IMG/VR virus record: IMGVR_UViG_2913123054_000008
Reading direction: 5' to 3' (one strand)
DNA: 28,426 nt
Source: a virus
Taxonomy: Duplodnaviria > Heunggongvirae > Uroviricota > Caudoviricetes
Of this stretch, positions 20,254 through 27,352 are shown one piece after another. Position 1 is the stretch's first letter. The number at the start of each line of letters is the position of its first letter. Under the pieces are notes generated by a model. It was not told the origin of the DNA. It worked only from the letters and a program-made list of their open reading frames with translations, and did not search any database. The position numbers and the translations under genes are program-made.

Positions 20254-20445
20254 TTATTTGTGCATTCTGATGTGGTTTAACAAGTGTTTGATAACGACCG
20301 TAAGCTCATCTTTATTGGCTTGCTCGACCATTTTTTCGGTGTAGCTTTCCACCTCACGAGAACTCAGGTCGTTATTTGAAGCCATTACAGTCAGCTTTTT
20401 TGCCCAATCGGCAAACGGGTCTATTGATGAAAGGGAATTAAGCAT
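20254..20445 (-). CDS. small hypothetical protein, divergent from the 143 aa cargo gene (start uncertain)
   Basis: Open frame with helical/charged composition (…SREVESYTEKMVEQANKDELTVVIKHLLNHIRMHK); candidate starts at 20445 (GAGG RBS, 63 aa) or 20385 (43 aa). The 20445 start overlaps the ATG of the opposing gene. Confidence 0.3.
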   Translation of the reverse strand: MLNSLSSIDPFADWAKKLTVMASNNDLSSREVESYTEKMVEQANKDELTVVIKHLLNHIRMHK

Positions 20446-20875
20446 GTCCAAAAACCTCGAATTATTTAACCAGCAGACGGCGGAAATCTTTGCGGTGTTA
20501 TGGGATAACTTCCCGGTGCCACAGGTCATTACCTACGAAAAATTTAACGCCGCGCTACCTGATGACTACTTTGACCAACTTAACTCACCGGAAATGAAAG
20601 CACTGAATCAGTTGCGCAGTGTGGTTGAGGGTACATTCACTTTTCTCAGTGAAAACGGCTACATCCAGTACGGAACAGACCACCAGACCTATTTTTATGA
20701 TGTGCGCCTGACCGAGAAAGCACTCGCCGTGCTTAACAAAAAGCCCGAGGCGCTCGGCGGTAATGAAACAATGGGCGATAAGATTATCAGTGCAGTGAAA
20801 GACGGGACGCCGGGAGTGATTGCCGGTGCGGTGACAAACCTGCTTACCCTCGGTGTCAATCTGGTAACCAGCTAA
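20444..20875 (+). CDS. hypothetical cargo protein, 143 aa, with a C-terminal glycine-zipper-like hydrophobic helix
   Basis: Clean ORF with an AAGGGA RBS-like element; low-GC relative to the core; C-terminus GTPGVIAGAVTNLLTLGVNLV contains a GxxxG pattern; no family recognised. Confidence 0.55.
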   Translation: MSKNLELFNQQTAEIFAVLWDNFPVPQVITYEKFNAALPDDYFDQLNSPEMKALNQLRSVVEGTFTFLSENGYIQYGTDHQTYFYDVRLTEKALAVLNKKPEALGGNETMGDKIISAVKDGTPGVIAGAVTNLLTLGVNLVTS

Positions 20876-20942
20876 CGCCTCGCGGGGCTCGTTGTTCAAC
20901 CCCGTCAGCACTGAAAGCGAGTTTCAGCGCTGACGACGTTTG

Positions 20943-21152
20943 CTATCGTCGACGTGGTGGAGGTGCGTATTTTGTCGGTCTGCTGATGCTATCCAGCTTG
21001 CCGCAATTATCCCTGACTATTTCGGCACACCCGACCAGCTCGGTGGGTGTCAAATTCTCATTGACCATTATCTGCTGCAGGCGATGAACGATAGCCATTA
21101 ACTTAATATTTCTGGTCTGGTGCTGCGGTATTTCACCTGGTAGTCGATGCAT
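20943..21152 (-). CDS. small hypothetical protein (69 aa)
   Basis: ORF with a good RBS (GAGGG, about 7 nt spacer) before the ATG; lies between two copies of a covarying hairpin repeat. Confidence 0.4.
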   Translation of the reverse strand: MHRLPGEIPQHQTRNIKLMAIVHRLQQIMVNENLTPTELVGCAEIVRDNCGKLDSISRPTKYAPPPRRR

Positions 21153-21351
21153 ATTATCACCCTCAATGAATTTTAATCAGTGCCGTCAAAACGCCACTAT
21201 AAAACCCTCTCAGGTCATGTCTCATTCATCACTGGCGTGTCATCAATAGCACATTGAGAAATTTTGAAAGGCAGGACTAAAGCCTCGTGGTCTCGTTACT
21301 CAACCCCGTCGACGCAAAAAGCTGGTTTTTGCGCCAACACGGTTATCATGT

Positions 21352-21582
21352 TTAACGCCAGCTATCGTCTTCCCAAATCTCTTGTAATATGCCGCTTAAT
21401 GTTTCTTTGTCTGCTTCTTTATCGAATCCGATAACCTCTACACCAGTCATTGACCCTTTCTTGACGTTAACTTTTATTGCTGGAAAAACGCATTGTACTC
21501 GATGTGTTATTTCATTCTGAAAAGCATCAATGATCTGTTGCCCTAATTTTTGTTCTTTATCCAACGTGATATTGATTCTCAT
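21352..21582 (-). CDS. dinI: DinI-family protein (DNA-damage-inducible protein I-like)
   Basis: 76 aa; MRINITLDKEQKLGQQIIDAFQNEITHRVQCVFP...VIGFDKEADKETLSGILQEIWEDDSW aligns by eye with E. coli DinI along its length; downstream of an SOS box. Confidence 0.8.
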   Translation of the reverse strand: MRINITLDKEQKLGQQIIDAFQNEITHRVQCVFPAIKVNVKKGSMTGVEVIGFDKEADKETLSGILQEIWEDDSWR

Positions 21583-21585
21583 AAT

Positions 21586-21768
21586 CTAATCAGCCTTATA
21601 AAAATTATCATCTTCGGTTTCGTTATTCTCGCTGTTTGCTAGGTCTGCAATGAGAGTGAGCGCGAGCTTTAAGTCTGATGGCTTGCAGTTTGCAATCAGA
21701 GATACCTCGGCAATAAATTGCACACAAGCCCACTTTTGCTGCGTTCGGCTGAAATGTTCGTCAACCAT
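21586..21768 (-). CDS. small protein, first gene of the SOS-controlled operon (possible Tum antirepressor N-terminal part)
   Basis: 60 aa ORF with a near-perfect RBS (GGAGGG) and a LexA box just upstream; ends with TAG in the same frame as, and 3 nt before, the dinI-like ATG. Confidence 0.5.
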   Translation of the reverse strand: MVDEHFSRTQQKWACVQFIAEVSLIANCKPSDLKLALTLIADLANSENNETEDDNFYKAD

Positions 21769-21787
21769 GGAATCCCTCCTACAGGGT

Positions 21788-21807
21788 TACTGTATGTTTA
21801 TACAGTA
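21788..21807. promoter_or_regulatory. LexA (SOS) box upstream of the 60 aa / dinI-like operon
   Basis: TACTGTATGTTTATACAGTA contains CTGT-N8-ACAG and matches the enterobacterial SOS-box consensus TACTGTATATATATACAGTA at 18 of 20 positions; it overlaps a TATAAA -10-like hexamer on the coding strand. Confidence 0.75.
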
Positions 21808-21881
21808 GCACGTATTGGTAAAAGATGGGAAGAAAAAAAACGAATAGGGCGATTGTCGTATGTACATGATATGGATATAAA

Positions 21882-24104
21882 TTACTCTGATATTGGTTTT
21901 GATGCTTCAGCTATCGCAGCAACACGATTAAGGATTTTCCTGGCTTTAGCCTCATGCGATGGTGCTGTGGAAAATATTTCTCCTTTGGCCGTTCCGCGTA
22001 GCCATTTACCATCAAAACAACTTTTACCACCGGCCATCAGGTGCAGAGCTTCGCCCCGGCTGATATTAATGCCGGTTGTCAAATGTATCTCTTCGATAGT
22101 TTTCGCTATAGCTGCGTTTTGCTCATCCGTTCCGTGGACGAATTTTCGCCGTGCTGCTGGCTTTTGCTTCCTGAGTCGGTTGGTCAACTCTCGTCTTTCA
22201 CGCCGACTCAGTGGTTTTGTTAAATCCAGTATCGGTGGATCGCTTTCGCTTCCCGTACAGTTATTGACAGAACTCCGAGGGACGGCTTTGCCGTCCTGAA
22301 GGTCAACGGCCAAATCAACAGCACGCTTCGGAACAATCTTCCACTGAGTGAGCCGGGTTAAAATCGGACTCCCTGCACCTATGGAGGAATCGTAGACTCC
22401 CTTAATACATACCGTTTCCTCACCGTACTGATTAAGCTCGGTACGCGGTTCATACAGTGTGCGCACCTGTAAATCATCGCGACGGACAAACGGCCCACCC
22501 TGAGCATTAACATAACCAGCCCAGTCACCAGCGTCGGCGGCATCATGGACGGCGGCAAACTCAACGCTCAGTCCGTGCGCGGTTTCGGTATCAGCGAGGC
22601 GACGCAACTCACGGTAAACCGTCACCGGCGCACCACCGATAAACTGAAACTGACGGATGTGCCAGCGCGCAGCCCATGCTGAAACGGCGGGGGCTGTCTC
22701 TTTCAGTAGCTCACCGCTTTCATCATCGGTTTCACCATCGAGAGCATAACCGTCGATATTTTTTGAAATGTATTTAGCAACATAGCCTGTTGCGCTGCCT
22801 TTCTCCGGGTCAATGGACTCGGCGTGGAAACGTGCTTTTTTGGATTTATCGCTTTTCAGTTCGTGGCGGTCTTCTTTCCATGCGTATTTACGGACGATGG
22901 AGCGAACATATTCAACATCTTCCGGCAGCATGAACATCAGCATGTGCCAGTGTGGAGTGCCGTCGTGATGAGGCTCGGCGACACGAATACCGAAAATACG
23001 GACATCTTCCCGATGTAGTTTGGCACGGATACGCGCCCAGATACCGGTTAGATAGTTTTGCGTGTCAGCCGGGCTGGCACCGCTCCATTTGCTGTTACGG
23101 TAACCGGCTTTAGTCGTGGCGTGATATTTTGACGGCGCGGTTAGAGTGTAAAACTCACCGACATAACCGAGCTCATTACAGATGTTTTCAAACCCACGAA
23201 TGCGGGTCATGAGCTCACAGCGGCGAATCGCAGGGTTAGCAACTGAGCCATCATATTTTTCAATCAGGCTGATACGGTTGCCGTCTTCGTCTTCGAGATC
23301 CAGACCTTTGAGAAATTCACGAGTGCGGCGCTTTTGTTCACGCCAGTCAGTCACGCAGTTTTTACTCGCGTAAGTGTTTTTTTTCTTACTGACGTTGCCG
23401 ACTGCAATTTGCAGGTGTTCGCGCCACGTAGCTGCAACACGGCGCAAACGACCGCGCCACCACCCATCGTTAAACATTTTGGCGATAGCCGGTGCGATTT
23501 CATCCGCACCGACATATTTTTTTTCAACCCGCTCCCAATGTGGTGGGATAACGTTAAATTGGAGGGAAATAAAGCCAGCACGAATATACCAGGTGTACAG
23601 CGTTTTAAGCTCGCCGAATCCGTGGTCATTAATGTTGGCAAGTTCACCACGAATGAAATTAGCAATATCAGCGGCCAACAGGTCAACATCAGCGCGCGAC
23701 ATATCCGGGAGACGGTTATATCGGGCGACCATATTAACCATGCGTGACGACAGATATTGCATTTGCTGAGTATCAAAATGACTTCCAAAAACAGCGGTTG
23801 ATACCTTGCTGTTGATACCAGCGCATTCGTATTTTTTTGCGACCAGTTCAAGACGCGGCAATGCCTTTTTGCAGAAGTTGATTAAAAATGCATTGGCTCG
23901 TTGACTACCCTGATTTTGCTCCAGCACCGCAGCAGTGCGATAAACATCTAACCGCACGCAGTCGGGCTGGAGAGAAAGCACCTTTTTTGCATGCAGCAAA
24001 GCCGCGAACATACGGTCGCGGCGATGCTGTTGCTCATAAGTAAGGTATGGGCTGGAGATTGCCGACCGTGGGACGTTCCACGGATAAGCGAATTGAACAG
24101 CCAA
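21882..24104 (-). CDS. A: replication initiation protein A (rolling-circle endonuclease, gpA-like)
   Basis: 740 aa; contains TLTAPSKYH, HHDGTPHWHM and AKYISKNIDGYALDG motifs recalled from P2 gpA; last gene of the early operon. Confidence 0.9.
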   Translation of the reverse strand: MAVQFAYPWNVPRSAISSPYLTYEQQHRRDRMFAALLHAKKVLSLQPDCVRLDVYRTAAVLEQNQGSQRANAFLINFCKKALPRLELVAKKYECAGINSKVSTAVFGSHFDTQQMQYLSSRMVNMVARYNRLPDMSRADVDLLAADIANFIRGELANINDHGFGELKTLYTWYIRAGFISLQFNVIPPHWERVEKKYVGADEIAPAIAKMFNDGWWRGRLRRVAATWREHLQIAVGNVSKKKNTYASKNCVTDWREQKRRTREFLKGLDLEDEDGNRISLIEKYDGSVANPAIRRCELMTRIRGFENICNELGYVGEFYTLTAPSKYHATTKAGYRNSKWSGASPADTQNYLTGIWARIRAKLHREDVRIFGIRVAEPHHDGTPHWHMLMFMLPEDVEYVRSIVRKYAWKEDRHELKSDKSKKARFHAESIDPEKGSATGYVAKYISKNIDGYALDGETDDESGELLKETAPAVSAWAARWHIRQFQFIGGAPVTVYRELRRLADTETAHGLSVEFAAVHDAADAGDWAGYVNAQGGPFVRRDDLQVRTLYEPRTELNQYGEETVCIKGVYDSSIGAGSPILTRLTQWKIVPKRAVDLAVDLQDGKAVPRSSVNNCTGSESDPPILDLTKPLSRRERRELTNRLRKQKPAARRKFVHGTDEQNAAIAKTIEEIHLTTGINISRGEALHLMAGGKSCFDGKWLRGTAKGEIFSTAPSHEAKARKILNRVAAIAEASKPISE

Positions 24105-26158: not shown

Positions 26159-27004
26159 ATGTCTAAAAATGATGTTAATGCGTCTGCCGCATTGGAACGT
26201 GTCCTTTCTGCATACGGCTTTAAGCAGCAAAAGGAACTAGCCGAAAGGCTTGGCATACATGCAAACAACGTGAGTAGCTGGCTTGCTAGAAACGTAATCC
26301 CTAGCAACGTTTTCGTTGAGTGTGCTCTTGATACTGGAGCTGACCTGCGATGGCTAATTAATGGTGAGCTTGCAAATGCAAGATTTGAAGTGGTGAAAAC
26401 TAAGCTTAAAGGTAAGCAACTCTATGATGAAATCATGGCAAATGGAGGGAGGGCGGTTCTGCGTCGGATTCTCGATGCGTATGGTTTTACTCTGCAAAAA
26501 GAGCTTGGAGATTTATTAGGTATATCTTCCGGCACTATAAGCACTTGGGTTAGACGCGATTTTTTCCCCGGTGACGTGGTTGTCACTTGCGCCCTTGATA
26601 CTGGCGTATCGTTAGAATGGTTATCAACCGGAAAAGGCCAGATGCGTAACAGTAATGATGGTGAACCGGCAAATGCTTTAACGATTAGAAAGTGCCGCCT
26701 CGAGGCGGGCGAACTCAAAGATATCGGACGCTGGACTCCTGATATATCTATGGTTTCATCAAATACTGATGATTTAGTGTTTATTGATGGTGTGAGCACA
26801 TCTTGGCTTGTTGATAGTTCTAACTCGAAGATAGGAAATGGTCGCTGGCTTATTGGTATTGATGGCGCACTCGATGTTTTTGACGTAATCAGGTTGCCAG
26901 GCGGAAAGGTCAGGTTATCAAATAAGTCTGCTGAGTTTGAATGTAATATTTCAGATATCACACCATCAGGTGCGGTTATTTTTACTTTGGAAAAGCATGT
27001 TTAA
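26159..27004 (+). CDS. cI: CI-type immunity repressor with an apparently duplicated N-terminal DNA-binding domain
   Basis: 281 aa from MSKNDVNAS...; two tandem segments (about aa 10-69 and 99-158) each resemble the 186 CI N-terminal HTH domain, followed by a C-terminal domain resembling the CI oligomerisation domain. Confidence 0.75.
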   Translation: MSKNDVNASAALERVLSAYGFKQQKELAERLGIHANNVSSWLARNVIPSNVFVECALDTGADLRWLINGELANARFEVVKTKLKGKQLYDEIMANGGRAVLRRILDAYGFTLQKELGDLLGISSGTISTWVRRDFFPGDVVVTCALDTGVSLEWLSTGKGQMRNSNDGEPANALTIRKCRLEAGELKDIGRWTPDISMVSSNTDDLVFIDGVSTSWLVDSSNSKIGNGRWLIGIDGALDVFDVIRLPGGKVRLSNKSAEFECNISDITPSGAVIFTLEKHV

Positions 27005-27013
27005 GGAGCAGTA

Positions 27014-27352
27014 ATGAAAAAGTTTATATTTGCGATAGTCTGCATTGCACTTTCTTCCTCAGCCATAGCCGCTGAGAAGTTTAAAGAGATAGACGGCGCT
27101 GCATATGGTGACAAGTGGCCTCTAACCTTTGAAAAGGCAAAGGTATCATGTGTTAACCGTGCTTATGCTTTTGTGTATGACATCAAAACTGATGATAGAT
27201 ATCCTCTGAATGGCATGGCGGTAGATGCTGTTAAATCAGGAAAGCTGGAGGGGTCTAACTTAGATGACGTATGGAAGGATGACCCTGAGTATGACGGCGT
27301 TAAAATTTCAATTTCACCGGTGATTGATGCCGCTACAGCCCTTTGTAATTAA
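27014..27352 (+). CDS. small secreted/periplasmic protein (moron between cI and int)
   Basis: 112 aa; N-terminal signal peptide MKKFIFAIVCIALSSSAIA followed by AEK; two Cys in the mature part; low-GC; possibly YebY/DUF2511-like, from memory and unverified. Confidence 0.55.
   Translation: MKKFIFAIVCIALSSSAIAAEKFKEIDGAAYGDKWPLTFEKAKVSCVNRAYAFVYDIKTDDRYPLNGMAVDAVKSGKLEGSNLDDVWKDDPEYDGVKISISPVIDAATALCN

Follow-up and report, generated by a model that had tools for sequence, protein, structure and literature searches.

The window, by which we mean the whole 28,426-nt (28.4-kb) stretch of viral DNA analyzed here, is a P2-family prophage of the 186/PSP3 type, and its closest phage match is Escherichia phage vB_EcoM-613R3. 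Its minus strand carries two small genes, tumA and tumB, that follow a predicted LexA box and lie directly downstream of the gpA replication gene. The gpA counterpart is annotated as a P2 A-like replicase at the matching position in PSP3, 186, and 613R3. The immunity region, at 25.1 to 27.0 kb, contains a CII (PF06892) gene and a CI gene and is followed by the integrase gene. We describe the sequence anatomy of this locus, its homologies, the conservation of its LexA box, and the modularity of its DinI gene across relatives. The features considered are the following.

21882 to 24104, minus strand: gpA, replication endonuclease gene, directly upstream of the locus and a marker of its context.
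21826 to 21831, minus strand: -35 hexamer TTCCCA of a p95-like SOS promoter, aligned to the 186 p95 -35 hexamer (TTCACA) by way of the LexA box.
21807 to 21802, minus strand: -10 hexamer TACTGT, identical with the first six bases of the LexA box and separated from the -35 hexamer by an 18-nt spacer.
21788 to 21807, no strand assigned: LexA (SOS) box, TACTGTATGTTTATACAGTA; coding-strand reading TACTGTATAAACATACAGTA.
21774 to 21780, minus strand: Shine-Dalgarno (SD) sequence AGGAGGG of tumA, with an anti-SD duplex of -10.7 kcal/mol and a spacing of 5 nt.
21586 to 21768, minus strand: tumA, encoding a predicted 60-aa CI antirepressor, with its ATG at 21768 and its TAG at 21588 to 21586.
21580 to 21588, minus strand: junction of the tumA stop TAG, the spacer codon ATT (21585 to 21583), and the tumB ATG, read directly and all in frame.
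21352 to 21582, minus strand: tumB, encoding a 76-aa DinI-family protein, in frame with tumA.
21301 to 21345, minus strand: stable stem-loop right after tumB, without a U tail (MFE of -26.1 kcal/mol; z = -3.8 compared to shuffles).
26159 to 27004, plus strand: cI, immunity repressor gene of the PSP3 type, the product of which is the presumed target of TumA; two PF07022 helix-turn-helix (HTH) domains and a PF16452 C-terminal domain.

The elements listed in the original prediction, namely a LexA box, a strong ribosome-binding site (RBS), a 60-aa open reading frame (ORF), a TAG, an ATT, and an in-frame DinI-family ORF, are all present, on the minus strand. The distance of about 20 nt that it gave between the box and the RBS needs correction: the RBS begins 7 nt after the end of the box, and it is the tumA ATG that lies 19 nt away. 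Compared to TACTGTAT-N4-ATACAGTA, the box has 0 mismatches and agrees at 16/16 specified flank positions. It is the sole match within the 28.4-kb window, even when 3 mismatches are allowed, a tolerance at which 0.03 matches are expected by chance. This predicted site is near the Enterobacteria consensus TACTGTATATATATACAGTA, has the form of a CTGT-N8-ACAG palindrome, and overlaps a p95-type -10 hexamer. The SOS promoter was missed by a generic sigma-70 scan because each hexamer matched at only 4/6 positions, and we placed it by homology to 186 p95 instead. The block TTTTTTTCTTC.CA.CTTTT.CCAATACGTGC around the -35 hexamer is common to 186 and the window, and in the 186 record the corresponding site is labeled as a LexA site overlapping the -10 hexamer. 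Judged by their sequence, the promoter and operator of the window are homologous to the annotated p95/LexA site of 186.

The 60-aa product of tumA matches phrog_1993 (E value of 1.8e-31). Our alignment of 32 TumA relatives from many genera (alignment A1) contains 23 invariant columns and has a mean column identity of 78%; the family core reads KWACVQFIAEVSLIANCKP..LKLAL.LIADLA, and TumA from the window has all 23 of the invariant columns. The AF2 model of TumA, with a moderate pLDDT of 67.5, is a helical hairpin (H3-25 and H30-50) followed by a disordered acidic tail. When we searched the TumA profile against PDB sequences, we obtained no match. The sole Pfam match of TumA, Vg_Tdu, was rejected as spurious, and Pfam is without a TumA family.

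The 76-aa product of tumB belongs to the DinI family. Its score against Pfam DinI (PF06183; cutoff 24.2) is 67.4 bits, with residues 15 to 75 covering model positions 2 to 62 of 63, and it matches phrog_189. TumB aligns over its full length with Escherichia coli DinI (PDB 1ghh; E value of 6e-9), including the C-terminal ILQE.WE..D.W helix; unlike E. coli DinI, TumB is phage-borne and lies in a putative antirepressor operon. The SD sequence of tumB itself is a weak and badly spaced AAGG (-3.8 kcal/mol, spacing of 10). Because this SD sequence is weak and the gap from stop to start is 3 nt, translation of tumB is likely coupled to that of tumA by termination-reinitiation. No Rfam family was matched in a scan of the whole window; therefore, no known structured-RNA family lies at the tumA/tumB junction.

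The same arrangement is present in PSP3 (GenBank AY135486), where the order is likewise gpA, LexA box, tumA (60 aa), TAG-ATT-ATG, and tumB. The TumA proteins of the window and PSP3 are 97% identical, and the two phages do not differ by a single base at the junction, GATTAGATTATGAGA, which is also identical in vB_EcoM-613R3. In contrast, the two phages carry different tumB alleles, with only 47% identity between the products, and the genes downstream differ. The PSP3 record describes tumA as "similar to 5' end 186 tum; UV induction of prophage" and tumB as "similar to dinI and 3' end of 186 tum". When annotated phage genomes were searched at the DNA level, the tumA/tumB pair was located in PSP3, SW9, SI22, SEN1, Midge, and 613R3, and a contig of Escherichia sp. 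E1V33 encodes an identical TumA protein together with an identical TumB, LexA box, and junction. A passage in Lemire et al. (2011; PMC3121763) credits Bunny et al. (2002) with the observation that tum of Fels-2 and PSP3 is divided by a stop codon; the same article cites a personal communication from G. E. Christie, and thus at second hand, for the identification of the upstream gene of PSP3 as an antirepressor. A whole-word literature search for the names TumA and TumB returned no relevant paper. The split tumA/tumB arrangement is already known, given its annotation since the PSP3 genome and its discussion in print, and the arrangement in the window is therefore an ordinary one.

The original prediction treated the locus as the equivalent of 186 tum, and this view is borne out by tumB, by the homology of the p95 promoter and operator, and by a probable distant relationship of TumA. 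As in the window, tum of 186 follows gene A. TumB is 66% identical to residues 71 to 146 of 186 Tum, which are its C-terminal 76 residues (E value of 3e-40). For the 60-aa ORF, BLASTP produced no alignment with 186 Tum, and the relationship appears only at the profile level: comparing A1 with a profile of 20 relatives of the 186 Tum N terminus (A2) in hhalign gave 89.9% probability and an E value of 1.7e-6 over 43 columns, both alignments being of low diversity. The 43 aligned columns share the pattern V..IA.......C...D...AL.LIA..A. In a search of a library of 1.84 billion proteins, 186 Tum was not among the matches to the TumA profile at an E value of ≤1e-3. Taken on sequence, it is probable that TumA is related to the N-terminal region of 186 Tum by distant homology.

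The two phages differ in how these parts are joined. In 186, antirepressor and DinI parts form one polypeptide of 146 aa, whereas the corresponding parts in the window are separated by a TAG, so that they are two genes and not a single polypeptide. The 186 record lists four nested tum products, the shortest of which, Tum95.5, starts at an internal GTG. This GTG is preceded by a strong AAGGAGG SD sequence (-12.1 kcal/mol) and aligns exactly with Met1 of TumB (VKVNITLDK versus MRINITLDK); given this internal start, a free-standing DinI module is made even in 186. Unfused forms of the 186-type N-terminal module exist as well, many of its relatives being short proteins of about 63 to 78 aa. Two short 186-type Tum proteins (63 and 67 aa; P0164 and P0186) are encoded after gpA with no DinI gene beside them. 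At the loci on Logan contigs (L036 to L040), the 186-type Tum consists of the N-terminal part only and is encoded after gpA without a DinI gene, and in some of them a DNA methylase gene is next instead.

The divergence between TumA and the N-terminal part of 186 Tum goes with different types of CI. The CI protein of the window is 73% identical to PSP3 CI (286 aa) and 32% identical to 186 CI (192 aa). Our Pfam scan detected no S24 peptidase domain in CI of the window or of PSP3, and because such a repressor is without the S24 autocleavage domain, an antirepressor is needed for SOS induction. 186 CI has one HTH domain compared to the two tandem Phage_CI_repr HTH domains in CI of the window and PSP3; the first repeat is the part most diverged from PSP3. 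Between cI and int, at 27014 to 27352 on the plus strand, is an ORF with a DUF2511 (YebY-like) domain and an apparent signal peptide, in the position that gp28 has in PSP3. This ORF looks like a moron expressed in lysogeny.

We surveyed relatives of the locus by searching GTDB representative genomes with the TumA profile, which yielded 28 species-level loci, and by including phages. The order gpA, LexA box, tumA is kept in 28/28 related loci, and in each of these 28 a CTGT-N8-ACAG box lies 37 to 48 nt upstream of the TumA start. TumA is 58 to 61 aa long in 27/28 loci; the exception, L031, is the weakest match and a partial one, and its ORF ends after 37 aa. A DinI-like ORF is found downstream of tumA in only about ten of the surveyed loci, and no DinI gene follows tumA in the remaining surveyed loci, which are the majority, or in E. 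coli FORC 064. Among 5,426 complete E. coli genomes, 80 contain the locus; 27 have the tumB allele of the window, and in the rest the allele is of the PSP3 type or tumB is missing. PGAP treats the pair at the E. coli loci as two distinct genes. Thus, what stays constant at this locus is the antirepressor module; DinI is an optional accessory that some relatives lack, that others carry next to tumA either in or out of frame, and that 186 has as a fusion.

Together, these data make it very likely that the locus is a tumA/tumB SOS induction module of a PSP3/186-like (P2-family, Eganvirus-like) prophage, composed of two separate, translationally coupled genes. TumA is predicted to be a CI antirepressor by analogy with 186 Tum and by the PSP3 report. 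The working model described below draws on PSP3 and 186 work for LexA binding, binding of TumA to CI, translational coupling, and the role of TumB. In a lysogen, LexA on the box overlapping the -10 hexamer of the p95-type promoter would occlude that hexamer and hold the operon off. DNA damage would lead to active RecA and self-cleavage of LexA, after which tumA-tumB would be transcribed. TumA, as a 60-aa helical hairpin, would then bind the noncleavable PSP3-type CI and block its binding to the operator, much as 186 Tum binds CI and prevents operator binding (PMC3121763). The early lytic promoter would be derepressed and the prophage induced. Ribosomes ending at the tumA TAG would reinitiate 3 nt downstream at the tumB ATG, and TumB, which probably modulates RecA filaments, a property suggested by its homology to DinI, would tune the SOS signal and induction without being their cause.

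A comparable combination occurs in the dinI-gfoA/gftA operons of the Gifsy prophages (Lemire et al. 2011; PMC3121763), which are also LexA repressed and also encode a small antirepressor of a noncleavable repressor together with a DinI homologue. The Gifsy operons differ in that dinI comes first, no relationship of their antirepressors to TumA is detectable, and the prophages are lambdoid rather than P2-like.

We considered whether TumB, and not TumA, might be the effector of induction, for example by stabilizing RecA filaments, with the 60-aa ORF serving as an accessory or leader peptide. TumB is the part strongly similar to 186 Tum, and DinI, which TumB matches in PDB 1ghh, is a known binder of RecA filaments; both fit such a role, but we regard it as very unlikely. 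The CI protein is without an S24 cleavage domain on which RecA could act, and the majority of relatives bearing TumA retain the LexA box while being without a DinI gene. Antirepressor activity has been reported for the upstream gene of PSP3, in the communication cited by Lemire et al. (PMC3121763), and the 186 record annotates the truncated, DinI-only Tum products as modulators only ("modulates SOS induction"). In Gifsy prophages, nonpolar deletions of dinI are without significant effect on induction (PMC3121763).

The original prediction left three options for the junction: two coupled genes, a tum interrupted by a nonsense mutation, or a candidate for stop codon readthrough. The first is the one that holds; TumA is conserved as a stand-alone protein, the stop codon, frame, and presence of DinI vary among relatives, and fusions did not appear among the proteins considered below. 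Programmed or leaky readthrough of the TAG would yield a functional 138-residue TumA-X-Ile-TumB protein like 186 Tum that contributes to induction or is required for it. The geometry of the junction would permit this, with the two ORFs in frame and one codon apart in the window, PSP3, 613R3, and four other enterobacterial loci, and in 186 the fused form is a functional protein. Termination at UAG is not at its strongest when the next base is A, and hosts with a supE-type amber suppressor would yield some fusion protein; we count both points in favor of readthrough.

Programmed readthrough would be expected to leave a conserved stop identity and frame, or fused homologues, and the relatives do not display these. 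The TumA stop codon is TAG, TAA, or TGA in the surveyed relatives, and the spacer codon is not conserved either, being ATT, TTT, or GCG. The 3-nt in-frame spacer is found in the window, PSP3, 613R3, and four close enterobacterial relatives (TAG ATT or TAG TTT) and in an Atlantibacter metagenome-assembled genome (MAG; TAA GCG), giving junctions such as TAG TTT ATG and TAA GCG ATG. However, the DinI ORF is out of frame in Phytobacter, with a 2-nt spacer (L024; TAG AT ATG), and in Pantoea, where the spacer is 13 nt and the ORF has a GAGGGA SD sequence of its own (L028), and the majority of relatives have no downstream DinI gene to read into. The in-frame loci have almost the same junction sequence and therefore are not independent cases in favor of selection on the frame, and the Rfam scan of the window likewise offers readthrough no matching element. 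An exhaustive HMM search of the 1.84 billion proteins yielded 37 TumA family representatives, almost all of them 46 to 87 aa long, and a word-indexed search yielded 207 TumA clusters, for which the 120 matches listed are 51 to 93 aa and mostly 60 to 61 aa. No TumA-DinI fusion is present among the 37 representatives or among the TumA cluster matches listed. Because stop codon, frame, and DinI presence are all variable, we reject readthrough as highly improbable. The same low standing applies to the suggestion that the in-frame junction is exploited, with low-level readthrough or amber-suppressor hosts giving a TumA-TumB fusion like 186 Tum. If it were true, the fusion would tie inactivation of CI physically to RecA filaments and alter the kinetics of induction, and the locus would encode three products, compared to the four annotated nested products of 186 tum.

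Two further observations from the survey concern single loci. A 137-aa match to the TumA profile, P0266, was examined as a possible fusion and rejected; its extension is not DinI-like, and the protein looks like an over-extended ORF call. In the Atlantibacter MAG (L013, 1687 to 1930), the DinI-like ORF after TumA appears to be frameshifted midway, reflecting either a pseudogene or an assembly error.

Although the locus at first sight resembles a 186-type tum with a single stop interruption, it is extremely improbable that it is a decayed, nonsense-mutated pseudogene through which the prophage is no longer SOS inducible, and we reject this reading because of conservation: the TumA core is highly conserved across many genera (the 23 invariant columns and 78% mean column identity of A1), TumA length is constant, the strong SD sequence and LexA box are kept, the tumB DinI domain is intact, and the arrangement exists in the isolated phages PSP3, SW9, SI22, SEN1, Midge, and vB_EcoM-613R3, with the PSP3 annotation linking tumA to UV induction.

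Read as two coupled genes, the locus points to a prophage DNA damage response that operates by a LexA-controlled antirepressor and not by repressor cleavage. This route is relevant to any forecast of how quinolones, mitomycin C, and similar antibiotics induce the prophage. The contribution of the comparative survey, namely that the antirepressor is constant and DinI optional, is a modest one; current understanding is unchanged because the split tumA/tumB pair was already part of the PSP3 genome annotation and of the published discussion.

Downstream of the tumA/tumB junction, the window departs from both reference phages. The tumB gene is a mosaic, with a breakpoint around 21500 to 21545. TumB is closer to the 186 Tum C terminus than to PSP3 TumB (66% versus 47% identity), and the DNA ceases to match PSP3-type phages and many E. 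coli prophages about 40 to 90 nt into tumB; this contrast in identity, together with the ending of the DNA matches, indicates recombination near or just inside the 5' end of tumB. In place of the canonical partial terminator t95a of 186 and the orf97 that follows it, the window has the tail-less hairpin and different genes. The hairpin may be a terminator, a structure that stabilizes or marks the 3' end of the RNA, or a recombination scar. From tumB to the presumed cos/portal end, at 20254 to 21152, is a variable accessory region with three small ORFs, in the place where 186 has orf97. The small ORFs match phrog_11386 (69 aa, minus strand, 21152 to 20943), phrog_2266 (143 aa, plus strand), and phrog_2454 (minus strand).
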